Source of the DNA: Candidatus Geothermocultor quzhuomuensis
GTDB taxonomy: Bacteria > Actinomycetota > Aquicultoria > Geothermocultorales > Geothermocultoraceae
Assembly: GCA_015711795.1 (NCBI GenBank)
Contig: JACVJC010000006.1
Span: 198 to 64,197, forward strand
DNA length: 64,000 bases
Direction: 5' to 3'
The notes beneath the pieces are model-generated. The model was not told the origin of the DNA, did not search any database, and saw only the letters and a program-made list of their open reading frames with translations. Shown piece after piece: positions 7,821-60,252 of this stretch (its first letter is position 1; the number at the start of each line of letters is the position of its first letter). The position numbers and the translations under genes are program-made.

Positions 7821-8115
7821 TTGGGAAAGAAAAGAAGAACTTATACTCAGGAGTTCAAACTTGAGGTTATCTCCGAAGCTCAAGCTGGTATTTCAATAGC
7901 TGAGCTTTTCAGAAGATATGAGATTTCTTCTGGTCTTATCTCTAAGTGGAAAAGACAGTTTAAAAGCTCTCAAAATAATCCTTTTCCAGGCAAGGGAAGC
8001 CGAAACACTTGATAAAGCTAAAATTGCTGAGATGGAACGGCTAATTGGCTGTCAGGCAAAGGAGATTGATTTTTTAAAAAACTTGCTAAAACGCTTAAAG
8101 GAAAGCGAAGGATAG
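7821..8115 (+). pseudogene. IS3 OrfA (HTH), frameshifted near 8005
   Basis: RRTYTQEFKLEV...ISKWKRQ, continuing in another frame as KIAEMERLIG...EIDFLKN. Confidence 0.85.
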
Positions 8116-8120
8116 TTTTT

Positions 8121-8980
8121 ATGCTGATTGATGAGGAGAGAGGGCGTCTTCCGGTAAAAAGAATGTGCGGGCTGGCACAAGTAGCAAGAAGCACCTACTA
8201 TAAGTGGTTTTATAAGATACCAGCAGAAGATAGAGATTTTCATAAGAGTGAGCCATTAAAAGAAATTGAAGCCATAGTGTCTGAGTTTTCGGGTTATGAT
8301 TATTGAAGGGTTACAGCTTGCCTGAGAGGCGAGGCAAGCTCATTAACCACAAGAAAGTCTTGCGGATTATGAGAAGAGAAAAATCTCATAAAGAAAAGAA
8401 GGCGTCACTACATATGCACAACCGACTCAACCCACACCTTACTAATTTATCCAAACCTAGCCAAGGAGACTATATCATCTGGGATTAATCAACTATGGAT
8501 TGCCGACATTACCTATATCTGCTTGAGAACTGAATTTGTATATCTTGCTTTAATTTTGAACGCTTTCTCTCGGAAAGTAGTGGGCTGGGCATTAAGGAAT
8601 ACTCTGGATCGGAACTTATCGCTATCGGCTTTAAGAATGGCTCTTATGCGTCGTGATTTCTCTCCTGGTCTTATCCATCACTCAGATAGAGGTTCCCATT
8701 ATGCCTGCAAGGATTATGTTGATCTCCTAAAGGCTCATGGTATCCTTATCTCAATGGGTGCTATTGGCAATCCCTATGAGAATGCTTAAATCGAGAGTTT
8801 CATTGCTACATTAAAGAAGGAGGAGGTGTATCTATTCGAGTACGAGAACGTGGCTGAGGTCCTAAGTTGGATTAGCTACTTTATTGAAGACGTATACAAT
8901 AGGAAGCGTTTTCATTTTGCTCTCGGATATCTGCCTCCGGCAGAATTTGAGAGCAAACTGGAAGAGAATATCTTAATTTA
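8121..8980 (+). pseudogene. IS3 OrfB DDE transposase broken by stops and frameshifts
   Basis: Fragments RSTYYKW, GYDY*RV, NHKKVLRIMR, WIADITYI, IHHSDRGSHY, GNPYENA*IESFIATLKKE, YNRKRFH..LGYLPPAEFE. Confidence 0.88.
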
Positions 8981-35218: not shown

Positions 35219-35248
35219 TTGACAAATATGAATATATGTTGATATAAT
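35219..35248 (+). promoter_or_regulatory. sigma70/SigA promoter of the ars island (TTGACA-18-TATAAT, extended TG) overlapping an ArsR-type imperfect palindrome
   Basis: TTGACA 35219-35224, TATAAT 35243-35248; ATATGAATATATGTTGATAT between and over them. Confidence 0.7.
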
Positions 35249-35283: not shown

Positions 35284-35625
35284 ATGGTTAAGGTAAAAAT
35301 TCAGATTTTTGATCCGCCAATGTGCTGTCCCACTGGAATGTGTGGTCCAACTATTGATCCCACTTTGATTGAAATCCACGAAGCCATCGGGCAGGTAGAA
35401 AAGGAATATAACGGGAAAGTCAAAGTGACGCGCCACCTTTTTGGGAAAGATGTGCAGCCATTTTTATCTAATAAAAAGGTTTTAAGTCTAATCCGTGAAA
35501 ATGGCCCAAGCACTCTGCCAATTACCACGGTCGATGGTGATATTATTAAGAGTGGCTCTTATCCTTCATATGAAGAATTGAAAAACTTGGTAGAGACACA
35601 GTTAAATACAGGAGGTAGACGATGA
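35284..35625 (+). CDS. arsD: Arsenic metallochaperone ArsD
   Basis: QIFDPPMCCPTGMCGP (CC-x4-C As(III) site), LPITTVDG, GSYP. Confidence 0.9.
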   Translation: MVKVKIQIFDPPMCCPTGMCGPTIDPTLIEIHEAIGQVEKEYNGKVKVTRHLFGKDVQPFLSNKKVLSLIRENGPSTLPITTVDGDIIKSGSYPSYEELKNLVETQLNTGGRR

Positions 35626-35963
35626 AAGAACTTTGTTCGTTCTTCAAAGTTTTGTCCGACGAGACAAGGTGTAAAATTTTTACTCTTCTTCTTTCCCGGG
35701 AGATGTGCGTCTGCGAGATTGTAAGTGAGCTCGGTCTTTCTCAGTCACTCATCTCTCACCATCTGTATCACTTAAAAGCGGCTGGTCTTGTTAAAGACAG
35801 GCGAGAAGGCGTTTGGATCCACTACTCAATTAATCACGAGAAACTCAATGAATATAAGCTGAAATTCTTACAAGGATTGCAGAAGGCTGCTTCAACTCAA
35901 ATCCCCTGTAAATTTGCCTGCTGTGATATGGAGGTGGCGGCCGGTGCAAAACAGGTCAGCTAA
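35622..35963 (+). CDS. arsR: ArsR/SmtB metalloregulator
   Basis: FKVLSDETR, EMCVCEI (CxC site), SQSLISHHL..L..AGLV; additional C-terminal CKFACC. Confidence 0.92.
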   Translation: MKELCSFFKVLSDETRCKIFTLLLSREMCVCEIVSELGLSQSLISHHLYHLKAAGLVKDRREGVWIHYSINHEKLNEYKLKFLQGLQKAASTQIPCKFACCDMEVAAGAKQVS

Positions 35964-36855
35964 GTTCATCTTCTTCTCGGGAAAAGGAGGCGTCGGGAAA
36001 ACCTCAATGGCTTCTGCCACTGCTGTTTACTATGCAGATCAGGGAAATAAGACCCTCATTGTAACAACAGATCCAGCTTCAAACTTGGCAGATGTCTTTG
36101 GGCAGGAGATTGGTCATAAGATTACCAAAATTAGTGGAATAGAAAACCTCTGGGCGATGGAGATAGATGCGGACAAGGCGACAGCGGAATACAAGGAAAA
36201 TGCTCTGGAACCTTTGAGAGAGCTCTTTCCAGAGGAGATGCTCAAAGTTTTCGAGGAGCAACTTAACTCCCCCTGCACCGAGGAGATGGCTGCCTTTGAC
36301 AAGTTTATCGAGTTTATGCATAATCCCGAGTTTGATGTAGTTATTTTTGACACAGCTCCGACCGGTCACACCTTGCGGCTACTGGAACTGCCTGCCGATT
36401 GGAGCAGACATATTGAAGCAAGCAAGGAGGGAAGTGGCCAGACCTGCATGGGGCCTGTGACCATGCTGGAGGAATCCAAGGCAAAGTACGACGAGGCGAT
36501 AAAACTAATGAAAGATCAAAGTCGGACTAGATTTGTTTTTGTCGTTCAACCGGAAGCGACACCGATTGCTGAGACCAAGAGGTCGGCCACAGAACTTGAA
36601 GAAAAGATCGGTATCAGGGGAACCGAACTGATAATCAACGGGATTCTTCCTGAGAATGAGTGCATCGATCCGTTTTTTAAAAAGCGCTACGAGATGCAGA
36701 TGAAATATGTTGAACAAATTAGAAACGAGATTCCACTACCGACGAAGTTAATGTACTTAAGAGAGCGTGATCTTAGAGGAATTGCGATTTTAAGGGAAGT
36801 TGCTCAGGAACTTCATCAAGAGGTAGAAGCTGAGGCGGTGGCGCAAGGTGATTGA
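35944..36855 (+). CDS. arsA: Single-domain arsenite-stimulated ATPase, A1 half
   Basis: GKGGVGKT, TDPASNL, SPCTEEMAAFD, DTAPTGHT, TCMGP; GTG 35944 follows GGAGG. Confidence 0.92.
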   Translation: MQNRSAKFIFFSGKGGVGKTSMASATAVYYADQGNKTLIVTTDPASNLADVFGQEIGHKITKISGIENLWAMEIDADKATAEYKENALEPLRELFPEEMLKVFEEQLNSPCTEEMAAFDKFIEFMHNPEFDVVIFDTAPTGHTLRLLELPADWSRHIEASKEGSGQTCMGPVTMLEESKAKYDEAIKLMKDQSRTRFVFVVQPEATPIAETKRSATELEEKIGIRGTELIINGILPENECIDPFFKKRYEMQMKYVEQIRNEIPLPTKLMYLRERDLRGIAILREVAQELHQEVEAEAVAQGD

Positions 36856-37744
36856 TGTCAAAAGTATGTTCATTCCCGAAAATGGTCAGATTCGTTCAGT
36901 CTTTTTCGCTGGTAAAGGAGGAGTCGGCAAGACGACTATCTCTTGTGTCACGGCGGTCAAGCTGGCTGAAGAAGGCTACAGAACCTTTCTCTTAAGCACC
37001 GACCCGGCATCTCACCTGGGAGAGGTGTTTGAGCAGGAGATTGGCAGCACCCCGACCGAGATAGAAGGAGTGGAGAATCTCTGGGCAGCCCGTATTGATC
37101 AGGAGAAGGCTGTGGTGGAATATAAAGAGCGTATCCTGGGCGATGCCAGAGGAAAGTACACCGAGGATGTCTTAGCAATGATGGAAGAGCAGCTCGATTC
37201 CCCTTGCACCGAGGAGATGGCAGCTTTTGATAAGTTTATTGAGTATGCTTCCTCCTCAGATTATGAAATCATTGTTTTTGATACTGCCCCAACCGGTCAT
37301 ACATTGCGTCTTCTCGAGCTTCCAGTAGACTGGAGCAAGCAACTTGAGTTTCAGGCTGGTGGAACAGTAATTGCAGATGAATTAAACAAACAGGCTCAGA
37401 ATAGATTCAGGCAAGTTATTGAGCGAATGCGCGACCCTGAGAAGACGACTTTTGCCTTCGTGGTCTACCCTGAGCATACCCCCATTATTGAGGCCTGGCG
37501 AGCCGGCGAAGAGCTCAAAGAAATTGGGGTTTCGACAAAATTGGTGGTAGCAAATTTTGTCTTGCCCGAAGAGCGCTGCACGACAGATTTCTTCAAGAAA
37601 CGATATGAGATGCAGCAGGAGCACCTAAAGGAATTAGGTAAGAAGTTTAAGGCCCCAGTTTTGACAATGCCTCTTCTTGATGGCGAGATAGTGGGTCTTT
37701 ACAATCTTAAAAAAGCTGCTCGCATTCTTTTTGACGAGGAGTGA
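36848..37744 (+). CDS. arsA: Single-domain arsenite-stimulated ATPase, A2 half
   Basis: GKGGVGKT, TDPASHL, SPCTEEMAAFD, DTAPTGHT; overlaps the A1 stop. Confidence 0.92.
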   Translation: MIDVKSMFIPENGQIRSVFFAGKGGVGKTTISCVTAVKLAEEGYRTFLLSTDPASHLGEVFEQEIGSTPTEIEGVENLWAARIDQEKAVVEYKERILGDARGKYTEDVLAMMEEQLDSPCTEEMAAFDKFIEYASSSDYEIIVFDTAPTGHTLRLLELPVDWSKQLEFQAGGTVIADELNKQAQNRFRQVIERMRDPEKTTFAFVVYPEHTPIIEAWRAGEELKEIGVSTKLVVANFVLPEERCTTDFFKKRYEMQQEHLKELGKKFKAPVLTMPLLDGEIVGLYNLKKAARILFDEE

Positions 37745-37749
37745 TAGGA

Positions 37750-37908
37750 ATGGATCAGAATATTGTTATTTCTTTTTCACCACAAGATATTATAAGATTG
37801 ACAATGATTGTAGTGGATGAAGACAAGGAGGAAGCACTTCTCTTCTTGAGAGAGCTAGAAAAAAAGGTAAAAGCTGCTCAAGAAAGTCATTGTAAGCCAA
37901 AAATATGA
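37750..37908 (+). CDS. Small hypothetical protein (52 aa), absent from the ORF track
   Basis: MDQNIVISFSPQDIIRLTMIVVDEDKEEALLFLRELEKKVKAAQESHCKPKI*; fills the gap between arsA2 and the next gene; weak AGGA RBS. Confidence 0.6.
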   Translation: MDQNIVISFSPQDIIRLTMIVVDEDKEEALLFLRELEKKVKAAQESHCKPKI

Positions 37909-37932
37909 TAAAGCTGAAAAGGAGAGTTTGTT

Positions 37933-38292
37933 TTGGGAAATAATAAAGAAAAACATGTCGTTCAGATCTTCGGTGTTGAGGCTGGGGCAGGGGGCTGAGG
38001 CCCTGTCTGTGAGCCCGCGGACTGCGGGCCGGCTCAAACTATGGCTGATCAAGCGGCGGCTGTTGAAACCGAGCTAAAGAGAAGCTTTGGCGACCAGATT
38101 GAGGTGCGCTATATCGATATCTTTATGTCTGCTGAAATTAATTCTTACCCTAACGTCATAGCTGCGGTAATGGCTGGCCAGGCTCCTCTTCCCATTACCT
38201 GCATTGACGGACAACCAAAAATAGCTGGGGGAATTTCCGTTCCAATGATTAAAAAGGAACTTGAGTCATTGGGTCTCAAGCCATCTTCTTAA
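37933..38292 (+). CDS. Putative selenoprotein, ArsD-like thioredoxin fold (119 aa, Sec at codon 22)
   Basis: AAGGAG RBS, TTG start at 37933, in-frame TGA at 37996-37998 in GAGG-U-GPVCEPADCGP, frame continuous with ORF 38041-38292; aligns by eye with ArsD. Confidence 0.75.
37999..38035 (+). promoter_or_regulatory. Candidate bacterial SECIS hairpin
   Basis: Stem GCCCGC (38013-38018) / GCGGGC (38024-38029) with G-initiated loop GGACU starting 20 nt after the UGA. Confidence 0.6.
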
Positions 38293-38334
38293 TAAAAAAA
38301 CCATTCCATTTCTGAGAACAGGAGGAGACAGCAA

Positions 38335-38553
38335 ATGCCAGAATACGACTTCAGATGCGGAAATTGCGGGGAAAAGGTAACTATTCGAGCAACCATTAGC
38401 GAAAGGGAAAAAGGCCTTAACTGCCCACATTGTGGTACTAAAGATTTGCACCAGATTTTTAGTGGTATTACCTTTATTGGTTCTTCTACTGGGTCGGATT
38501 TTTCATCTTTCCCACCAGGCTGCATCCCCGGCGGCGGCTGCTGCCCGTCTTGA
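38335..38553 (+). CDS. FmdB-family zinc-ribbon protein
   Basis: MPEYDFRCGNCG...CPHCG; Cys-rich tail GCIPGGGCCPS. Confidence 0.85.
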   Translation: MPEYDFRCGNCGEKVTIRATISEREKGLNCPHCGTKDLHQIFSGITFIGSSTGSDFSSFPPGCIPGGGCCPS

Positions 38554-38631
38554 GGCTCTGTGAAAAGATAAACTAAATCTTGATAGACCAGGTAAGTTTG
38601 GATAATCAATCTTGTAGAAAGAGGTGATTTT

Positions 38632-40581
38632 ATGCATGTAGAAACGGCACGCAGAGAGAAACTTTCCATCGTTGAGAAACTTTTGCCGGTCTGGATTATC
38701 TTAGCCATGGCGGTCGGTATGGGCGTTGGCAAGCTCATCAATGCCTCGAATGTCGAGCTTCTTCCGCCAATTGTGGCTATCATCTCTATTTTTAAAGGCA
38801 CTTTTCAGTTTGATTTGGGTCACAGCATCTCACTGGGCATCCCCATTGGCCTCTTTTTAATGATCTACCCGGCTATGGTGAAGATTCATATGGAAGATGC
38901 TAAGAAGGCGTTGACCAGTGGCCGGGCGGCTGGTGTTGTTGTCTTCTTTAACTATGCTATTAATCCCTTTCTGCTGTGGCTTTTTGGCTGGATTTTTCTA
39001 CGCAATCATCCTGATCTCTGGACTGGACTAATTCTTTTGGGTGTGGCACCGTGTATCGCTATGGTCTTAGTTTGGACCGACCTTGCCAAGGGAAACAACG
39101 CTATGGCTTTAACCCTGATGGCCTGGAACTCCTTGATTCAGATGATCACCACTCCCCTATTTATCTTTTTGATTATTGGTTCTCGGGTTAAGCTTGACAT
39201 AAGTCTGATTGCCGAAAGTGTCATCCTCTTTCTTGGCTTGCCTCTCTTGGTCGGCGTGCTAACCCGAGGGAGCGCCATCAAGCGAAAGGGAGAGGAATGG
39301 TTCGAGAAGAGATTTGTGCCGGTCATAAACAATATTCAGCTCATCGCTCTGCTTTTTACATTGGTCATTATGTTTTCACTTAAGGGCGATGTAATAATAG
39401 CCAAGCCGGAACTCATCTATCTAATGGCAGTTCCTTTGATCTTGTTTTTCGTCACCCTCTTTATGCTGACCTTCTTTGTGGCAAGGCAGGTCAAGCTCAA
39501 TTATGAGGATTCGGTAGCTGTTGCTTTCAACTCTACAGGCAGAAACTTTGAATTATCAATTGCGATTGCTCTGACTGCGTTTGTGGCAAGGCCGATGGTC
39601 GGTGTCTCAACGGTGGTAGGTCCCTTGATAGAGGTTCCAGTGATGCTGGGTCTGGTCTATTTTGCCAAGCGGGTGAGTACCAGCTTGTTTGCTGTTAGAA
39701 AGGAGCCCGAAGCGATGTTTGAGAGAGTGCTTTTTGCTACAGATTTCTCTGATTGTTCCTGGGCAGCTTTTAAGTGCCTTGAGGAGCTCAAAGTGGCCAA
39801 AGAGGTAATCCTAACACACATAGTCGACACAAACATTGCCAGTGAGGGCAAAACAGAATTCTTACTTGAAAGCGCCAGAACAGATATGGACGAGAAAAGA
39901 GAACTCCTTAAGAAACAGGGTTTTTCAGTCAAAACTGTTGTGAGGCTTGGAGTGGTGACCAGAGAAATTCTGAAAGTGGCGGAGGAAGAGAGGGCATCTC
40001 TAATCATGGTTGGCGCCCGAGGAGCCGGCCTTTTGAGAGAACTTGTTTTAGGTAGTACTCCTTCAGAGCTCATCCGCTATGGGCGCTTCCCTGTTCTAAT
40101 CCTTCGTCATCAGGTTGTAGAGCGGATGGGTGAAAGAAAATGTGAGGGCGTTTGTGAGAATTTCTTAAAGAAGGTTGTAGTGCCGACAGATTTTTCCCAG
40201 TATGCAAATCGGGTTCTTGGGCATATAGTCGAGAGAAAATCCGAGTTGCCGGTAGAAGAAGTTGTCCTGGTCAATGTGGTTGATAGAGGTGAAGACGCGC
40301 AGGCAATTGAGGCTCATAAAGAAGAGGCAAAAGCTGAGCTGGCAGCCTTGGCTGAAAAACTCGAGAAAGAAGGTTTCAAAACCAGCGTTCATGTCCATGT
40401 AGGAAGTCCTTCAAAAGAAATTATTAGAGTGGCCGAAGAGGAAGATGTCTCTCTTATTATGATAGGAGCAAAAGGAAAGGGGCTATGGAAGGAAATCCTT
40501 TTGGGGAGCACGTCAGAGCAGGTAGCACGGCATGCAGACCGTCCAGTACTTGTATTTAAGCCATTAGAAAGTTTTGCTTAA
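38632..40581 (+). CDS. acr3: Acr3 arsenite efflux permease fused to two universal stress protein (USP) domains
   Basis: LMIYPAM, GVAPCIAMV, GRNFELSIA, VGPLIEVPV in about residues 1-350; then two USP repeats VLFATDFS...LGSTPSEL and VVVPTDFS...LGSTSEQV. Confidence 0.9.
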   Translation: MHVETARREKLSIVEKLLPVWIILAMAVGMGVGKLINASNVELLPPIVAIISIFKGTFQFDLGHSISLGIPIGLFLMIYPAMVKIHMEDAKKALTSGRAAGVVVFFNYAINPFLLWLFGWIFLRNHPDLWTGLILLGVAPCIAMVLVWTDLAKGNNAMALTLMAWNSLIQMITTPLFIFLIIGSRVKLDISLIAESVILFLGLPLLVGVLTRGSAIKRKGEEWFEKRFVPVINNIQLIALLFTLVIMFSLKGDVIIAKPELIYLMAVPLILFFVTLFMLTFFVARQVKLNYEDSVAVAFNSTGRNFELSIAIALTAFVARPMVGVSTVVGPLIEVPVMLGLVYFAKRVSTSLFAVRKEPEAMFERVLFATDFSDCSWAAFKCLEELKVAKEVILTHIVDTNIASEGKTEFLLESARTDMDEKRELLKKQGFSVKTVVRLGVVTREILKVAEEERASLIMVGARGAGLLRELVLGSTPSELIRYGRFPVLILRHQVVERMGERKCEGVCENFLKKVVVPTDFSQYANRVLGHIVERKSELPVEEVVLVNVVDRGEDAQAIEAHKEEAKAELAALAEKLEKEGFKTSVHVHVGSPSKEIIRVAEEEDVSLIMIGAKGKGLWKEILLGSTSEQVARHADRPVLVFKPLESFA

Positions 40582-40590
40582 GAGGATCCA

Positions 40591-41115
40591 ATGCTCAAAA
40601 AGCAATATGACCGTGTGGAAGAACGAGAAAAAGTATTCGAATTAATGGATCTAAACACCAAGCATGTTCTTGATCTTGGCACTTGTGGCTGCGATTGTAT
40701 GACGATGATTTTGGCCAAAAATGGTTTTAGAGTGACACCAGTCGATAACTCTGAGGAGAAGTTAGCTGAAGCTAAGGAATTTGCACAGCAGGAAGGACTT
40801 TCCGAAAGCATAGATTTTCGGCATGAAGACGCAGCTAATCTTTCTTTTGCCGATGGTTCGTTTGAAGCTGTTGTGGCTTATAATCTTTTGCATCATTGTG
40901 ACGATGTTGACGGAGTCGTTTCAGAGATGTTTCGAGTTTGCAAACCAGACGGAAAAATAATCATTGCTGAACTTAATGCTGATGGGAGAAGGGAGGCAGA
41001 ACATCGGAGGGACCGGCGATTTCTCAAGAAAGTCCAGAAATTGATAGAAAAACAGGGCCGAGAATTTGAAGTATTTGATCTTGATTTCACTCGAGTATGG
41101 ATCGTCAGGAGGTGA
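40591..41115 (+). CDS. Small class I SAM-dependent methyltransferase with Cys-rich motif I
   Basis: VLDLGTCGCDC, VDNS, EDAANLSFADGSFEAV, LHH, FRVCKPDG. Confidence 0.75.
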   Translation: MLKKQYDRVEEREKVFELMDLNTKHVLDLGTCGCDCMTMILAKNGFRVTPVDNSEEKLAEAKEFAQQEGLSESIDFRHEDAANLSFADGSFEAVVAYNLLHHCDDVDGVVSEMFRVCKPDGKIIIAELNADGRREAEHRRDRRFLKKVQKLIEKQGREFEVFDLDFTRVWIVRR

Positions 41116-41119
41116 GATT

Positions 41120-41362
41120 GTGGTAACCGAAAATGAGATAAGAGAAGCGTTGCGAGAGGTGATCGATCCTGAAGTAGGAATTAATCTGGTTGATATGAAT
41201 TTAATAAAGGACATCAAGGTTGATGGCGAGAGGGTAAAAGTCAAGATGACTTTAACTATCCCGACATGCCCGTTGTCAAGTTACCTAACAAATCAAGTTA
41301 AGGAAAAAGTTGAGAGCCTCCCAGGAGTGAAGAGCGCCGAAGTCGAGCTAGTGGATTTGTGA
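41120..41362 (+). CDS. DUF59 / SufT (MIP18) Fe-S cluster assembly protein
   Basis: L.EVIDPEVGINLVDM.LI, MTLTIPTCPL; GTG 41120 follows GGAGG. Confidence 0.88.
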   Translation: MVTENEIREALREVIDPEVGINLVDMNLIKDIKVDGERVKVKMTLTIPTCPLSSYLTNQVKEKVESLPGVKSAEVELVDL

Positions 41363-41372
41363 GGAGGTTAGA

Positions 41373-41603
41373 ATGTGTTTGGGCATCCCAGCGAAAGTAA
41401 TAGAAATTAATGGGTATATGGCAGAGGTGGAAATCGGCGGCACGCGCCGGGAGGCCAGTCTCCAACTGGTACCAGATGCCAAGGTTGGAGATTTTGTGCT
41501 TATCCATACTGGCTATGCAATTCAGAAGATCGATGAAAAAGAAGCTGAAGAAACCCTTGAGCTCCTAAAACAACTGGGCGAAAGCAATGGCAGCGGGGAG
41601 TAA
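41373..41603 (+). CDS. hypC: HypC/HupF hydrogenase maturation chaperone
   Basis: MCLGIPAKV, VGDFVLIHTGYAIQKIDE.EA.ETL. Confidence 0.93.
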   Translation: MCLGIPAKVIEINGYMAEVEIGGTRREASLQLVPDAKVGDFVLIHTGYAIQKIDEKEAEETLELLKQLGESNGSGE

Positions 41604-42600
41604 GGGGATAATACCAAAGCTTGCCACAATTCTAGGCAGGTATTTAATTCTCTGGGTTTTCTTCTCCATGGCCTTAGGCACCTTGGTTGGTTATTCTTTA
41701 CCCAGGGTTTCCCAAAGGCTTGAGCCAATTGTTCCTGCTTTATTATTTATGATGATCTTTCCGGGAATGACCAAGTTAGAGTTAGAACATCTTTTTGAAG
41801 TGGTAAAGGATTATAAAAAGATAGCAGTTTCCTTTGTCACAACGTTTATTATCACCCCCCTCATAGTCGGTCTTTTTGCCTATATTTTCTTGCGGAACTA
41901 TCCGGCTTTTGCCGTTGGTTTTATTCTTCTCGGAATTGCGCCTTGCATCGGGATGGTTTTGGCCTGGATCAATCTGGCGGGCGGAGATAATGCGCTGGCA
42001 GCTGTTCTTGTTTCTGTCAATTCTACCCTCCAGTTCTTTACCATCCCTTTCTGGGTCTATGTGTTAGCTCATGTCTATGTCAAAGTTCCTGTTTTGTTAG
42101 TTGTGCGCAGCGTGGCTTTATTCGTTCTTTTACCAATGATGGCTGGTCTTCTTACCCGTCGCTATTTTCTGGTGAAGCTTGAGACTGAAAGGCACGAGCG
42201 AGTGACTACACTGCTTTCGATCATTGAAAAGCTGGCTATTCTGTTTGCAGTTGTGGTGATTCTTGCTCTGCAGGGCAGAACACTAATTGCTAAACCATGG
42301 ATATTTCTTCTAATGGCATTACCTCTGCTTATTTATTATTATTTTGTGTATTTTGTTGGTTTGGGAGTGAGCAGGCTTTTTAGATTCGACTATCCTACCT
42401 CTGTGGCTATCGCATTCAACGCCAACAGCACAAACTTCGAAATTGCCATCGCTATAGCTTTCGTCAGCTTTTCAAGCGCCACCGCTTTAGCCACCGTGGT
42501 CGGTCCAATTCTCGAACTACCGATCCTGGTTAGTTTGATCCATCTAAGTCAGCGACTGCGACCAGCCTGGGAGAGGAGGCTGAAGGATAGCATGCTATAG
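41587..42600 (+). CDS. acr3: Second Acr3-family arsenite permease
   Basis: MMIFPGM, GIAPCIGMV, NFEIAIAIA, VGPILELP. Confidence 0.82.
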   Translation: MAAGSKGIIPKLATILGRYLILWVFFSMALGTLVGYSLPRVSQRLEPIVPALLFMMIFPGMTKLELEHLFEVVKDYKKIAVSFVTTFIITPLIVGLFAYIFLRNYPAFAVGFILLGIAPCIGMVLAWINLAGGDNALAAVLVSVNSTLQFFTIPFWVYVLAHVYVKVPVLLVVRSVALFVLLPMMAGLLTRRYFLVKLETERHERVTTLLSIIEKLAILFAVVVILALQGRTLIAKPWIFLLMALPLLIYYYFVYFVGLGVSRLFRFDYPTSVAIAFNANSTNFEIAIAIAFVSFSSATALATVVGPILELPILVSLIHLSQRLRPAWERRLKDSML

Positions 42601-42639
42601 TTACATTGAGAATAATTTCTCAATGTTAAGGAGTTTCGG

Positions 42640-43371
42640 GTGCTTGAGGTTAAAGATTTAACTGTTGAGGTTGACAGAAAGACTATCCTACACAACGTGA
42701 ATCTGGCTATCGACGCTGGAGAAACTCATGCTCTGCTTGGCCCGAACGGCAGCGGAAAGACGACTCTTCTTATGGCCATTATGGGAATGCCCCGTTATCG
42801 TATTAAAAAGGGTCAGGTCCTTTTTCAAGGCAAAGACATCACCAAACTTTCCATTGATGAACGAGCCCGTTTAGGGATAGGACTGGCTTTTCAGAGACCG
42901 CCAGCAGTCAGAGGGGTTAAGACTCGTCAGATTGTTGAGCTATGTCTGGGAGAAAAAAACGCAAAAAAGGTGGAAGAGCTGGCACGAAAGCTCAATCTTG
43001 CTGCGATGCTTGAGCGAGACGTCAATCAAGGTTTCTCAGGTGGAGAAATAAAACGTTCGGAGATGCTTCAGCTCCTTGCCCAGAACCCGTCCTTTGCCAT
43101 GTTTGATGAGCCGGAATCCGGTGTCGATCTGGACAATATTGCCGTGGTTGGCGAAGCGATTAACGAGATTTTGCAGAAAGAGCGGATACGTGAGAAAAAG
43201 AAGGCTGGGCTAATAGTAACCCACACCGGACACATTCTTGATTACGTGAACGCTGACAGAGGGCATGTTCTGATGGAAGGAACAATTGTCTGCGAGGGAA
43301 ATCCGCGGGATCTTTTCGCTGATATTCGAGCTCACGGCTATGAGGAGTGTGTCAAATGTCGAAGGTGCTAA
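42640..43371 (+). CDS. sufC: Fe-S assembly ABC ATPase SufC (minimal SmsC-like)
   Basis: GPNGSGKT, RDVNQGFSGGEIKRSE, FDEPESGVD, VTHTGHILDY. Confidence 0.9.
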   Translation: MLEVKDLTVEVDRKTILHNVNLAIDAGETHALLGPNGSGKTTLLMAIMGMPRYRIKKGQVLFQGKDITKLSIDERARLGIGLAFQRPPAVRGVKTRQIVELCLGEKNAKKVEELARKLNLAAMLERDVNQGFSGGEIKRSEMLQLLAQNPSFAMFDEPESGVDLDNIAVVGEAINEILQKERIREKKKAGLIVTHTGHILDYVNADRGHVLMEGTIVCEGNPRDLFADIRAHGYEECVKCRRC

Positions 43372-44618
43372 ATAAAACCCTGGCTAAAAATAAAATAGAA
43401 TGGCGCAGGAAAGCGGAGGCTGTGAAGAGCAAGCCTGCCACCTTCGGTCCGGATATAGACCTCTCCAAATTTGCTACCCCTACTGAGAAGGAGAAGGTTG
43501 AATCACTTGAATCCCTTTCCAAGCAGGCTAAAGAGGCGGCTCTTTACGTCGGGATCGATGCTGATGAATCCTTTAGAGCTGGCAGCTACTTTCAAATAGA
43601 CCACTCAGTTATTTACGAGCGTGTTCAGCAGGCCTATCAGGGGCAATTGGAGATTATGTCAACTTCTGAGGCCCTTGAGAGATATGATTGGGTGGCGGAC
43701 TTGTGGTGGCAGGCAGTTCACGTTGATCAGGACAAGTACACTGCTCTGGCTGAACTCAAGCATACTCACGGCTACTTTATTCGGGTGTTTAAAGGCCAAA
43801 AGATTGAGCGGCCCATTCAGGCCTGTCTTTTTCTGGCAGAGAACAATATCAGCCAGAATGTCCACAATTTAATTGTCATTGAAGACGATGCCGAGGCGCA
43901 AATTATTACTGGCTGCACCCTTCACCCGCGGGTTGAAGAAGGACTGCACGTGGGAATCAGTGAGTTCTTCCTGGGTAAAAATGCTTCTCTGATGTTCACT
44001 ATGATCCACAACTGGGCCGAGAATTTCGATGTTCGTCCGCGAACCGGCGCCGTCTTAGAAGACAACGCCACCTTTGTCTCAAACTACATTCTGCTCCGCC
44101 CGGTCAAATCCATCCAGATGTTTCCGGCTGCTTTTCTTAAGGGTAAAGATTCGCGGGCTCGCTTTAATACCATTCTCTATGGAATGAAGGACTCTTATAT
44201 TGATGTTGGTTCAAAAGCTGTCTTAAGCAACAAGGAGACAAAAGCAGAAGCAATCGCTCGGGCAGTGGCATGCGACCAGTCGCAGATCTACGCCAGAGGT
44301 CAGCTCATCGGCCAGGTCAACGAGAGCCGGGCCCATCTCGATTGCCGCGGCATTCTCTTTTCAAGCGAAGCCCAAATTCGCGCCATCCCTGAGCTTTTTG
44401 CCGAAAAAGCCCCGTTGAGTGAACTCTCCCATGAGGCAGCTATCAGCCCTATTGCCGAAGAGGAAGTCGAGTATCTTATGGCCAGGGGGCTATCCAAGGA
44501 AGAAGCAGTCTCCACAATTACCCGTGGTTTCTTAGATATCGATATACCCGGCCTTCCTCCGATCCTTAAAGGCTATATCCAGCGAGTCCTGGATGCTGCC
44601 ACCAAGGAAGCTCTTTAA
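43356..44618 (+). CDS. sufB: SufB/SufD-family Fe-S scaffold (SmsB-like)
   Basis: HVGISEF, HLDCRG, AIPEL, ELSHEAAI..I..EE..YLMARG..EEA...I.RGF. Confidence 0.85.
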   Translation: MSKVLNKTLAKNKIEWRRKAEAVKSKPATFGPDIDLSKFATPTEKEKVESLESLSKQAKEAALYVGIDADESFRAGSYFQIDHSVIYERVQQAYQGQLEIMSTSEALERYDWVADLWWQAVHVDQDKYTALAELKHTHGYFIRVFKGQKIERPIQACLFLAENNISQNVHNLIVIEDDAEAQIITGCTLHPRVEEGLHVGISEFFLGKNASLMFTMIHNWAENFDVRPRTGAVLEDNATFVSNYILLRPVKSIQMFPAAFLKGKDSRARFNTILYGMKDSYIDVGSKAVLSNKETKAEAIARAVACDQSQIYARGQLIGQVNESRAHLDCRGILFSSEAQIRAIPELFAEKAPLSELSHEAAISPIAEEEVEYLMARGLSKEEAVSTITRGFLDIDIPGLPPILKGYIQRVLDAATKEAL

Positions 44619-58074: not shown

Positions 58075-58485
58075 ATGGATATTAATAAAGTTGTTTTGAT
58101 TGGAAGATTAACTAAGGACCCTGAGCTAAGATTTACACCGGACGGGACACCAGTAACAACCCTAAGGTTAGCAGTAAATCGTCGTCCTAATAGGGAAGGG
58201 AAGACTGAAACAGATTTTTTCGATGTCATTGTTTGGCGTCGAGCAGCTGAGTTGTGTTCACAGTATATAAAAAAGGGATATCGAATCGCCTTGGAAGGAA
58301 GGCTTCGAACGAGGTCTTGGCAAACCTCCGACGGTCAAAATAGATCAAAGGTTGAAGTAGAGGCAACTAATGTTCAATTTCTTGACCGCCCTCGTCAAGC
58401 TAATCAAATGGTGGAGGAGGAATTAGTTGAAGGGGGAGAAATTTTAGATGAAAATGCCGAAGACACAGATGATATTCCATTTTAG
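58075..58485 (+). CDS. ssb: Single-stranded DNA-binding protein
   Basis: NKVVLIGRLTKDPELRFT, EGRLRTRSW, C-terminal DDIPF. Confidence 0.97.
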   Translation: MDINKVVLIGRLTKDPELRFTPDGTPVTTLRLAVNRRPNREGKTETDFFDVIVWRRAAELCSQYIKKGYRIALEGRLRTRSWQTSDGQNRSKVEVEATNVQFLDRPRQANQMVEEELVEGGEILDENAEDTDDIPF

Positions 58486-58497
58486 GGAGAATAAAAA

Positions 58498-58728
58498 ATG
58501 AATGGCGAGTTATTTAAAAGGAGAAAAAAATATTGTTATTTTTGTAAGGAAGGTATTGATTTCGTTGACTATAAAGATGATAACTTTCTTAGAAGGTTCC
58601 TTTCTGATCGAGGGAAAATTAGATCTCGTCGAGCAACAGGTAATTGCGCTCGTCATCAAAGGCTTGTGGCGACAGCAATTAAAAGAGCTCGAGAAATGGG
58701 TCTCTTGCCTTATACGATGACTAGGTAA
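58498..58728 (+). CDS. rpsR: 30S ribosomal protein S18 (zinc-binding)
   Basis: [36 protein letters not shown]. Confidence 0.96.
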
Positions 58729-58729
58729 G

Positions 58730-59689
58730 GTGAATGATAAACCAATCAGGAAAATTGAAGAAACCATATTAACTTTTTTCCTCTTTCTTTTAAGCTTTTT
58801 TTTCTTTTCTTATTTTCCTTTTTTCTTTTTCTTATCCCTTCCCTTTCTTCCTCTTTTAATTTTTCATTTTTATCTTCGTCATGGGTTACCTTATACTCTT
58901 TTACTCGCTTTTTTTCTCCTTTTTTCTTTAACCATTTTTCTCTCATTTTTTCAGGGATTATTTATTTGGTTAATTTTGATTTGGTTTGGGATAATTCAAA
59001 ATTGGTTAATTCAAAGAAAGATTACTCCTTTAAAGCTAATCTTTATTAACACCTTATTTATATTTTTTTTATTCATTGGGGCTGGTTTAACTGCTTACTA
59101 TTTTTTTGGGACTAATCCAATTACCTTTGAAAGGAAAGCAATTGAAAATTTTCTTGATGAGCAGAAAAAAATAGCTTTTTCATCTGGATTGACGGAAGAA
59201 AAAGTAGTAGATGAATTTCGCTTTTTAGAGAAAGCCTTGAGAAGCTCAGTTTATCTTTGGCCAAGTGGTATATTTTTTTATAGTGTTTTGATTAGCTTTT
59301 TAAATTTTATTGTTACCCGATTGACTTTAAAAGATAAAAAATTGGAATTCTTAGACCTTCCTTCCTTTAAAAATTGGCATTTTCCTTGGTATCTTGTTTG
59401 GGGATATATCTTAGGGCTAACAGGTGTTTTTTTCTACCGATTTGCTCGCAACTTTGAGCAAATAATTTTTATTGGAAGTATTAATCTTTTAGTCAGCTTT
59501 GGCTTATTATTTTTTATTCAAGGACTTTCAATTTTATGGTATTTTTTTGATAAGTACAAATTACCATGGTGGGCGAAGGCTGTGTTATGTTCAGTTGCTA
59601 TTTTGTTACAATTGGTATTTCAAGTCTTAACCTGGGTTGGGGTTTTCGATACTTGGTTTAATTATCGAAAGTTAAAGGAGGCTTATTGA
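58730..59689 (+). CDS. YybS / DUF2232 membrane protein
   Basis: Polytopic; F..W.FP, QGLSI, GVFD.WFNYRK; syntenic between rpsR and rplI. Confidence 0.85.
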   Translation: MNDKPIRKIEETILTFFLFLLSFFFFSYFPFFFFLSLPFLPLLIFHFYLRHGLPYTLLLAFFLLFSLTIFLSFFQGLFIWLILIWFGIIQNWLIQRKITPLKLIFINTLFIFFLFIGAGLTAYYFFGTNPITFERKAIENFLDEQKKIAFSSGLTEEKVVDEFRFLEKALRSSVYLWPSGIFFYSVLISFLNFIVTRLTLKDKKLEFLDLPSFKNWHFPWYLVWGYILGLTGVFFYRFARNFEQIIFIGSINLLVSFGLLFFIQGLSILWYFFDKYKLPWWAKAVLCSVAILLQLVFQVLTWVGVFDTWFNYRKLKEAY

Positions 59690-60252
59690 AAGTGGTTCTT
59701 TATTATATTATTATTGTTATTTTCTTCATTGTCATCGCTTTTTTAGTTTTTTTATTAATTAAAAGCAAGACCTCCCCAAAAGAATTCCTTGAAGAGGCTC
59801 ATGTTGATCGATATGTTTTGGTCGATCGTGAAACTGATTTATACAATCGAAGATTTTTCTTGAAGAAAATAGAGGAAGAAGTTGACCGCGGGAAAAGATA
59901 TGGTGCTGGTTTTTCCCTAGCTTTACTTCATTTACCTTTTGAGGTAACTTCTCTTGATGATGTAAATTTAAATAAAATTTTACGCAAAATTGGCTCAATT
60001 ATCACTAAAGATACACGCTTTTCGGATGTGGTTGCCCGTTATGGGAGGGAAAAAATAGGAGTTTTCTTTCCTATGACTTTAAGGAGAAGCGTTGATGTTC
60101 CAACTGAAAGAATTAAAGAGAAAATTACAGCTTTTTTGAATGAGGAAGGATTTAGCCAAGAAGAAGTTTATTTTACTATTTATTCATTTCCTGAGGATGC
60201 TTCCAAGATAGAAAAATTTATTAGAGAAATTTCTGAAACTCTCACTTATTGA
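59686..60252 (+). CDS. N-terminal TM + degenerate GGDEF domain
   Basis: D.ET.LYNRR.F, RFSDVVARYGREKI (RxxD retained, GGDEF lost). Confidence 0.75.
   Translation: MKVVLYYIIIVIFFIVIAFLVFLLIKSKTSPKEFLEEAHVDRYVLVDRETDLYNRRFFLKKIEEEVDRGKRYGAGFSLALLHLPFEVTSLDDVNLNKILRKIGSIITKDTRFSDVVARYGREKIGVFFPMTLRRSVDVPTERIKEKITAFLNEEGFSQEEVYFTIYSFPEDASKIEKFIREISETLTY

Follow-up and report, generated by a model that had tools for sequence, protein, structure and literature searches.

A predicted selenocysteine-containing thioredoxin-fold protein encoded in an arsenic-resistance operon of Candidatus Geothermocultor quzhuomuensis

Among the arsenic-resistance (ars) genes of Candidatus Geothermocultor quzhuomuensis lies a small gene, here called gene X, whose reading frame is interrupted once by TGA. 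The gene stands between arsA and ACR3 permease genes in a stretch of 64,000 nucleotides (contig JACVJC010000006.1), referred to below as the window, and it raises a twofold question: whether the TGA is a stop or a codon for selenocysteine (Sec), and what a selenoprotein would contribute among arsenite-efflux genes. Comparison of orthologous loci answers the first part, in that the UGA at 37996-98 is very probably decoded as Sec. On the second part, the best overall explanation, to which we give an even chance, is that gene X encodes a 119-residue selenoprotein of a small, unnamed thioredoxin-fold family that hands off As(III) within the ars operon.

The in-frame TGA of gene X and its decoding

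Gene X starts at TTG (37933-35) and stops at TAA (38290-92), with a single in-frame TGA (37996-98). Reading through this codon gives (M)GNNKEKHVVQIFGVEAGAGG-U-GPVCEPADCGPAQTMADQ..., a product of 119 residues, for which the gene-finder open reading frame (ORF) comprises only 83 residues, beginning at Met36 (38041). The features of the sequence described in a first-pass annotation, made from the letters of the window, were all confirmed by re-reading: the TTG start, the AAGGAG ribosome-binding site, the single TGA, the upstream extension of the 83-residue ORF and a hairpin past the TGA.

When the read-through product, with Cys substituted at the TGA, was searched against 5.8 billion proteins, only 8 matched: the full-length P0001 (124 residues), the window's own 83-residue call and 6 calls of 77-84 residues. 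P0001, encoded at locus L001, reads ...QIFGYESGASG-C-GPTCGPAGCGP..., with Cys (codon TGT) at the UGA position. Translation of the DNA 5' of the truncated calls placed a TGA at this very codon in each of 8 independent, fragment-called orthologous loci (L002/L003, L004, L005, L006, L007/L008, L009 and L011, the last a further partial metagenome contig with the same pattern), L001 with its TGT being the ninth. In the orthologues K(H/F)(V/I)(V/I)QIFGAE...GG leads up to the TGA and GP.C.PA.CGP comes after it, and a start codon (TTG, GTG or ATG) is kept 21 codons 5' of the TGA or TGT in all of them. U22, C26, C31 and C90 are invariant across this close clade, taken as about ten sequences, one of them the Cys form. 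The clade is rare, since profile scans of genomes and metagenomes with its alignment yielded only one genome (the uncultured Actinomycetota metagenome-assembled genome of L002) and one extra partial contig; tblastn against plasmids gave no match. The first-pass annotation had proposed a hidden selenoprotein and had named homologues with Cys or TGA at position 22 as the decisive evidence; both kinds exist, and the proposal is borne out by the conserved in-frame TGA, the Cys homologue, coding conservation on both sides of the codon and a hairpin resembling a selenocysteine insertion sequence (SECIS). The criteria used in the field for calling selenoproteins were those applied to gene X (PMC13188914, section 6).

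The predicted Sec site extends beyond the close clade. Exhaustive phmmer comparison of P0001 with 1.84 billion representatives returned 94 proteins at E <= 1e-3, which fall into two groups: proteins of about 105-135 residues with a Cys-rich loop past the first beta-strand (beta1), for example GGCGCGSGCCGP, and 'fragments' of about 54-90 residues. A profile built from 31 full-length family members (alignment A2) found 74 proteins, of which more than half measure 66-84 residues and one bears the Joint Genome Institute name 'disulfide oxidoreductase YuzD'. Many full-length members carry Cys in the same loop as U22. The DNA of three more distant lineages, in Peptococcaceae-type genomes, reads ...PAPSGG-TGA-GCGPSTGCGP (L012, Peptococcaceae BRH_c4b-type), ...VFTGG-TGA-GVNNRTSCGS (L014, Peptococcaceae 1198_IL3148) and ...FTGG-TGA-GPSRGASCGP (L015/L016), so that a predicted Sec at 'GG-U-G' recurs across the family.

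A means of decoding is suggested by the hairpin that follows the UGA. In the bacterial SECIS (bSECIS) model a loop of 3-9 nucleotides (nt) caps a stem no shorter than 4 bp, a G lies within the first two loop positions and is usually followed by G or U, the UGA-to-loop distance is 16-37 nt and the free energy (dG) is no higher than -7.5 kcal/mol (PMC13188914, section 5). The hairpin at 38013-38029 agrees with this model on four of four counts, and an equally stable SECIS-like hairpin arises in just 1.4% of synonymous recodings of the same peptide, a control used in place of a dinucleotide shuffle. In the distant L012, L014 and L015 the sequence after the UGA is unrelated, yet each has a hairpin of its own that begins 12 nt downstream and carries a G-led loop, UGGAU, GUUG or AGUUGC. 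The fraction of synonymous recodings that do as well is 0.014 for the window and 0.134, 0.009 and 0.051 for the three distant lineages, the four combining by Fisher's method to roughly 5e-4, and the hairpins of the distant relatives supply independent support for a SECIS.

Several observations tell against the hairpin or against Sec decoding. A dinucleotide shuffle of the G+C-rich 71 nt at the hairpin gives z = -0.27, which is not significant; the minimum-free-energy fold of the region is another structure, which does not fit the SECIS model; conserved codons for Pro-Ala and Cys-Gly supply the stems; and an even stronger hairpin is retained in L001, the Cys orthologue. From the last two points it follows that, within the close clade, a conserved hairpin is indistinguishable from the effect of coding constraint. 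In a neighbour-joining tree, which carries no support values, L001 is nested within the Sec clade, so that a recent TGA-to-TGT change leaving a relic hairpin is plausible. The window, moreover, holds no tRNA or tRNA-Sec detectable by ARAGORN, and its real ORFs hold no SelD (GxGCK) or SelB (GHVDHGK) motif. The hairpin with loop AGCC, which belongs to the minimum-free-energy fold, was rejected as a SECIS, its loop lying 13 nt from the UGA and its G being followed by C. An Rfam scan of 37600-38700 gave nothing relevant.

Two alternatives to Sec decoding have to be weighed. The TGA might truly terminate translation, or be an error of sequencing or a lesion in a pseudogene, in which case a 21-residue leader and/or an 83-residue protein would result; this would accord with the gene callers, which annotate the 77-84-residue part only, and with the lack of detectable Sec machinery in the window. 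It is nonetheless very unlikely, given that 8 assemblies independent of one another, drawn from different samples and diverged in their flanks, share the TGA, that L001 has a Cys codon at that position, and that purifying selection before the TGA equals that after it. By Nei-Gojobori counts over all pairs of orthologues, the ratio of nonsynonymous to synonymous differences (pN/pS) is 0.21 for the 15 codons before the TGA, 0.28 for the 13 codons from the UGA to Met36 and 0.22 for the remainder of gene X, as against 1.5-1.7 for the upstream stretch in the other two frames. The annotated start lacks conservation, since L007 and L011 have Leu in place of Met36 and their calls begin even further downstream; the 83-residue product would also, judging from the structural model described below, be without beta1 and the entire Cys loop. 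The other alternative, that TGA is read as Trp or Gly under code table 4 or 25, draws on two public calls, P0027 and P0043, that read 'GGWGP' at the Sec position. In P0043, for which the DNA was checked, the 'W' is a TGA translated under the wrong table (L015 459-461, L016 450-452), and the locus fails to give the query under table 11; it is likely that the TGA=Trp table of a gene caller conceals Sec here. TGA terminates 10 of the 41 long ORFs of the window, which indicates the standard code and excludes tables 4 and 25, and homologues have Cys, not Trp or Gly, at the column in question, leaving this alternative with next to no probability.

All other TGA-bridged frames of the window were searched for a second selenoprotein candidate, and none was found. 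One such frame, 58448-59746, was rejected as a membrane protein joined to an unrelated upstream piece.

Fold and relatives of the gene X protein

Curated models place the protein in no family. Against Pfam it gives only a sub-threshold match to DUF1462 (PF07315; 19.4 bits, E 1.3e-3, cutoff 25), a model that 10 of the 31 family members reach at E <= 0.01, the best at 1.7e-5. Neither of the ArsD models in Pfam and NCBIfam (PF06953, NF033727) is matched at E <= 0.1, and no NCBIfam model of release 20.0, selenoprotein models included, is matched at that level by the gene X protein or P0001. PF13192 and TIGR00412 are likewise unmatched by the gene X protein, and one of the 31 members reaches about 1e-3.

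Comparisons with PDB entries point to the thioredoxins. The A2 profile finds 1xg8 (Staphylococcus aureus SA0798, DUF1462) in the PDB at 2e-6, the small archaeal thioredoxins 1fo5 and 1nho at about 1e-5, and MTH895 (1ilo) at 2e-3, the ArsD structure 3mwh being not significant at E = 1.3. An AlphaFold2 model of P0001, the 77% identical Cys orthologue, was made with A2 as the alignment; its predicted local distance difference test score (pLDDT) is 86, and its elements run b1(13-19) - low-confidence loop(20-41) - a1 - b2 - a2 - b3 - b4 - a3. Foldseek matches this model to thioredoxins in general, with the top template-modelling score (TM-score) to 1xg8 (0.60/0.68) and ArsD next (3kgk/3mwh, TMt 0.60/0.59). 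As modelled, the gene X protein is shown to have a thioredoxin fold, predicted to run beta1 - long Gly/Pro-rich loop - alpha1 - beta2 - alpha2 - cisPro-beta3 - beta4 - alpha3.

Aligned by hhalign with four ArsDs from the ars loci studied (alignment A3), A2 gives a probability of 96.2% over 98 columns (E 2.3e-9); the shallow clade alignment A1 (Neff 1.5) is uninformative against ArsD, at a probability of 5%, and BLASTP of the gene X protein against the island's own ArsD gives E = 0.01. The As(III) site of ArsD consists of the vicinal Cys12-Cys13 plus Cys18. When the profiles are aligned, C26 falls opposite the second ArsD Cys and C31 opposite the Cys of CGP (Cys18 of R773 ArsD), and U22 belongs to an inserted stretch of about 7 residues that follows the column of the first ArsD Cys. 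The first-pass annotation had placed U22 at that first Cys of the CC-x4-C triad, a placement that the alignment does not sustain: the site is U-x3-C-x4-C, with no vicinal Cys pair and no CxxC at the start of alpha1. The CxxC of 1xg8 pairs with a gapped C...C of the family profile, and where gene X has Cys90, ArsD carries Thr. By these alignments U22, C26 and C31 all lie in a flexible loop that matches both the thioredoxin CxxC site and the ArsD Cys triad.

The family therefore sits between DUF1462/YuzD, which is closer, and ArsD, which is remote but real, and by curated thresholds is a member of neither. With DUF1462/YuzD it shares the best PDB profile match, the highest TM-score, its size, the placement of Cys between beta1 and alpha1, and the blocks 'YGD.V.V.Y.D' and 'LP...ING'; it differs in having a long Gly/Pro/Cys-rich loop with Sec where YuzD has a compact CxxC, and YuzD is not known as a selenoprotein or as an ars gene product. 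With ArsD it shares a thioredoxin fold without CxxC, a position beside arsA, a soft-ligand triad in the post-beta1 loop that ends in CGP, and 'LPIT.(V/I)DG' before beta3. It differs from ArsD in the spacing of the triad and the insertion, in failing the ArsD hidden Markov models, in coexisting with a canonical ArsD in one operon and in having relatives outside ars operons. The earlier description of the protein as an ArsD-like paralogue is thus partly right: a remote homologue it is, as the profile alignment and the ArsD structures among the better fold matches indicate, but a family member or close paralogue it is not, as the missing ArsD model matches, the BLASTP value and the 3mwh value indicate.

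The ars operon and its surroundings

The genes around gene X are listed in Table 1 together with the features of gene X itself. L001, L002, L004, L006, L007 and L009 share the order arsD-arsR-arsA-arsA-X-(Zn ribbon)-ACR3. In the window a single strong promoter-like site lies before arsD, and no terminator-like site was found on the + strand from arsD to the end of ACR3. This synteny shows gene X to be a fixed component of what reads as an arsD-arsR-arsA1-arsA2-(55 aa)-X-(Zn ribbon)-ACR3 operon, and its assignment to the ars operon in the first-pass annotation is upheld by the gene order kept in these six orthologous loci. The further remark that arsC is absent also holds at motif level within the window, where no low-molecular-weight protein tyrosine phosphatase (LMW-PTPase) motif CX5R and no glutaredoxin-type motif was found in real ORFs. 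The thioredoxin motif WCGPC is likewise missing from the real ORFs of the window.

Table 1. Features of gene X and of the surrounding ars genes, in window coordinates
Feature	Position	Strand	Remarks
Promoter-like site TTGACA-18-TATAAT, extended TG	35219..35248	+	12/12 sigma-70 consensus match, 36 nt 5' of arsD; consensus match only
arsD, canonical As(III) metallochaperone, MCCPTGMCGP	35284..35625	+	PF06953 1e-28 (100 bits); NF033727 103 bits, cutoff 90
arsR-family repressor	35622..35963	+	PF01022 HTH_5 at 3e-17
arsA half-size gene 1	35914..36855	+	PF02374 7e-80; SPCTEE + QTCMGP cysteines
arsA half-size gene 2	36848..37744	+	PF02374 4e-78; SPCTEE cysteine only
Conserved 55-aa ORF between arsA2 and gene X	37741..37908	+	No Pfam or NCBIfam match
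Ribosome-binding site AAGGAG	37919..37924	+	8 nt 5' of TTG start; read from sequence
Full selenoprotein gene (gene X), predicted	37933..38292	+	119 codons + stop; predicted thioredoxin fold; loop U22-x3-C26-x4-C31-G-P
UGA, Sec residue 22 (predicted)	37996..37998	+	Same-codon TGA in orthologues; TGT in L001
Alternative minimum-free-energy fold, mutually exclusive with SECIS candidate	37999..38030	+	GGCCC/GGGCC lower stem, GUCUGUG/CGCGGAC upper stem, loop AGCC
Cys26 codon TGT	38008..38010	+	Invariant in ars-linked clade; pairs with second Cys of ArsD triad
Candidate SECIS hairpin GCCCGC-GGACU-GCGGGC	38013..38029	+	6-bp stem; 5-nt loop 38019-38023, 20 nt after UGA; dG -11.6 kcal/mol
Cys31 codon TGC, within invariant CGP	38023..38025	+	Pairs with ArsD CGP Cys
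Cys90 codon, in LPITC(I/V)(D/N)G	38200..38202	+	Invariant in ars-linked clade; 3 residues past presumed cis-Pro
FmdB-type zinc ribbon, Cys-rich tail PPGCIPGGGCCPS	38335..38553	+	PF09723, TIGR02605; same place in L001, L006
ACR3-type arsenite efflux permease + two universal stress protein (Usp) domains	38632..40581	+	PF01758 6e-46; PF00582 4e-51

Several of the neighbours have features of their own. ArsA is split over two overlapping half-size genes, half 1 carrying both metalloid-site Cys motifs (SPCTEE and QTCMGP) and half 2 SPCTEE only, so that an ArsA heterodimer would rebuild a three-Cys site; by residue equivalence to R773 ArsA, the split enzyme keeps three metalloid-site cysteines. Orthologues of the 55-residue ORF are found at L007 (5947-6114), L009 (1121-1288) and L011 (about 780-895) and were not called in L001, L002 and L004; their C-terminus is conserved as ...(S/G)HC(K/A)P(K/R)I. 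The tail of the zinc ribbon, PPGCIPGGGCCPS, has a vicinal Cys pair and one more Cys and could be another As(III)-binding motif, and the FmdB family is itself on the selenoprotein list, with UxxU (PMC13188914).

The first ACR3 permease clusters with a protein named 'ACR3 family arsenite efflux transporter', and 3' of it lie genes for a methyltransferase, a SufT-like and a HypC-like protein, a second ACR3, sufC and sufBD. Two ACR3-type permeases are thus encoded in one island (38632-40581 and 41587-42600), the first fused to two universal-stress-protein domains. The SufT-like FeS_assembly_P gene, the HypC/HupF-like gene, sufC and sufBD occupy 41066-44618 on the same strand, and a link between these Fe-S assembly genes and arsenic damage of Fe-S clusters is possible. 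The ars/suf island (36000-44600) has a G+C content of 44-48%, compared with 35-40% in the flanks, where prfA, prmC, rpiB and glyA lie upstream; its elevation above these housekeeping genes suggests horizontal acquisition. Elsewhere in the window, at about 8022-8789, a transposase-like frame (...STYYKWF...) is broken by several stops and is probably a degraded or frameshifted insertion sequence element.

Proposed function, its alternatives and its meaning

Translation of gene X would begin at TTG 37933, and the hairpin at 38013-38029 would recruit SelB with Sec-tRNA(Sec) at UGA 37996, making Sec residue 22, both by the standard bacterial mechanism. As(III) would then be bound three-coordinately by one selenolate and two thiolates of the loop and, through exchange of ligands, passed to the split ArsA ATPase at its Cys site or to ACR3; the selenolate would capture As(III) more tightly, and exchange it faster, than a thiolate. 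That the loop forms a Se,S,S site exchanging metalloid with ArsA (or with ArsD or ACR3) we consider close to an even chance, perhaps a shade under it.

Three observations count against such a role. The operon already holds a canonical ArsD; the closest relatives that bear a name are labelled disulfide oxidoreductases (YuzD), which favours a generic redox role; and L012, L014 and L015 lie outside ars operons, their neighbours being gatCAB/ligA or psd/pssA. From the last point it follows that the Sec site is not arsenic-specific for the family as a whole.

The same selenoprotein could be a selenenylsulfide/dithiol oxidoreductase rather than a metalloid carrier, with U22 and C31 (or C26) cycling; it might reduce arsenate or organoarsenicals in place of ArsC, or keep the As-binding cysteines of ArsD, ArsA and ACR3 reduced. 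Its nearest relatives are thioredoxin-like (1xg8/DUF1462, the MJ0307 and MTH807 thioredoxins and 'disulfide oxidoreductase YuzD'), the Sec forms outside ars operons keep only a U...C(G[PS]) pair (U-x7-C in L014 and L015), as would fit a two-residue couple, the window has no arsC motif, and thioredoxin-fold redox proteins make up most catalogued bacterial selenoproteins (PMC13188914). Yet the CxxC or UxxC spacing is missing, the loop is long, Gly/Pro-rich, of low model confidence and nearer to the metalloid loop of ArsD, none of the three soft ligands varies within the ars clade, and the operon encodes no reductase partner such as TrxB. Moreover, L004 has an LMW-PTPase-type arsC three genes downstream and so holds both genes together, so that gene X is not simply a substitute for ArsC. 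A redox function is accordingly a serious possibility, though one well short of an even chance. That the protein is instead a true ArsD-family paralogue, Sec replacing the first Cys of CC-x4-C, is improbable: the common pattern QIF...CGP...LPIT.(V/I)DG, the profile alignment over 98 columns, the ArsD structures among the better fold matches and the adjoining arsA speak for it, but the ArsD models are unmatched, BLASTP against the island's ArsD reaches only the value given above, the PDB ArsD scores E = 1.3 as against 2e-6 for 1xg8, and, compared with ArsD, U22 is part of an insertion and the vicinal Cys pair is missing. Capture and hand-off of As(III) by a Sec-containing loop remains the reading that we prefer.

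How new such a protein would be can be judged from known selenoproteins. A catalogue of May 2026 lists 119 prokaryotic selenoprotein families, none with an ArsD, DUF1462 or YuzD domain; arsenic is represented in it by ArsM, ArsC and ArsC-like proteins, of which the Sec-containing arsenite methyltransferase ArsM is experimentally verified and the Sec-containing arsenate reductases are predicted (PMC13188914, Table 1), and metal(loid)-resistance selenoproteins are a recognised group (PMC13188914). Sec is thus already known in arsenic-detoxification proteins, but these belong to unrelated folds and families (NF008823, TIGR00014, NF041106), and none is an ArsA-associated small thioredoxin-fold protein. 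The most similar catalogue item is the Brachyspira PF13192 'Sec.1/Sec.2' pair, likewise small thioredoxin-like selenoproteins with Sec/Cys in a short N-terminal stretch that precedes the core and routinely truncated or missed in annotation (PMC5330540, 2017); they differ in family, motifs (CxU / UxC), organisms and gene context. A further likeness is offered by MTH895/ArsE, named 'redox-active disulfide protein 2' (PF13192/TIGR00412), in that TIGR00412 relatives occur in ars operons, to go by the NCBIfam name. Full-text searches of the literature library used found nothing relevant linking a selenoprotein with ArsD, an ars operon, YuzD or DUF1462. The gene X family is new in that it lies outside the 119-family catalogue and NCBIfam 20.0, though the supplementary lists of large deep-learning screens may hold it; it adds a new family to a well-known kind, that of thioredoxin-fold and metalloid-resistance selenoproteins, with an unusual site and partner set.

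In public protein sets the family appears almost only as fragments of 66-84 residues or with 'W' wrongly given where Sec is predicted, and reading through gene X is a practical annotation fix for such ars operons. The natural Sec and Cys orthologues, 77% identical, allow a clean comparison of Sec with Cys. It is possible, though we hold the idea only tentatively, that gene X would be the first selenium-based metalloid chaperone, a Sec/Cys/Cys protein that captures As(III) and delivers it to the split ArsA and ACR3 beside or downstream of the all-Cys ArsD, and that it would represent a wider 'GG-U-G' selenoprotein family truncated almost everywhere by gene callers. The chemical antagonism of selenium and arsenic has long been known; with a predicted Sec placed, within an ArsA/ACR3 efflux operon, in the loop that matches the arsenic site of ArsD and of the thioredoxin superfamily, gene X would give that antagonism a concrete, testable protein.

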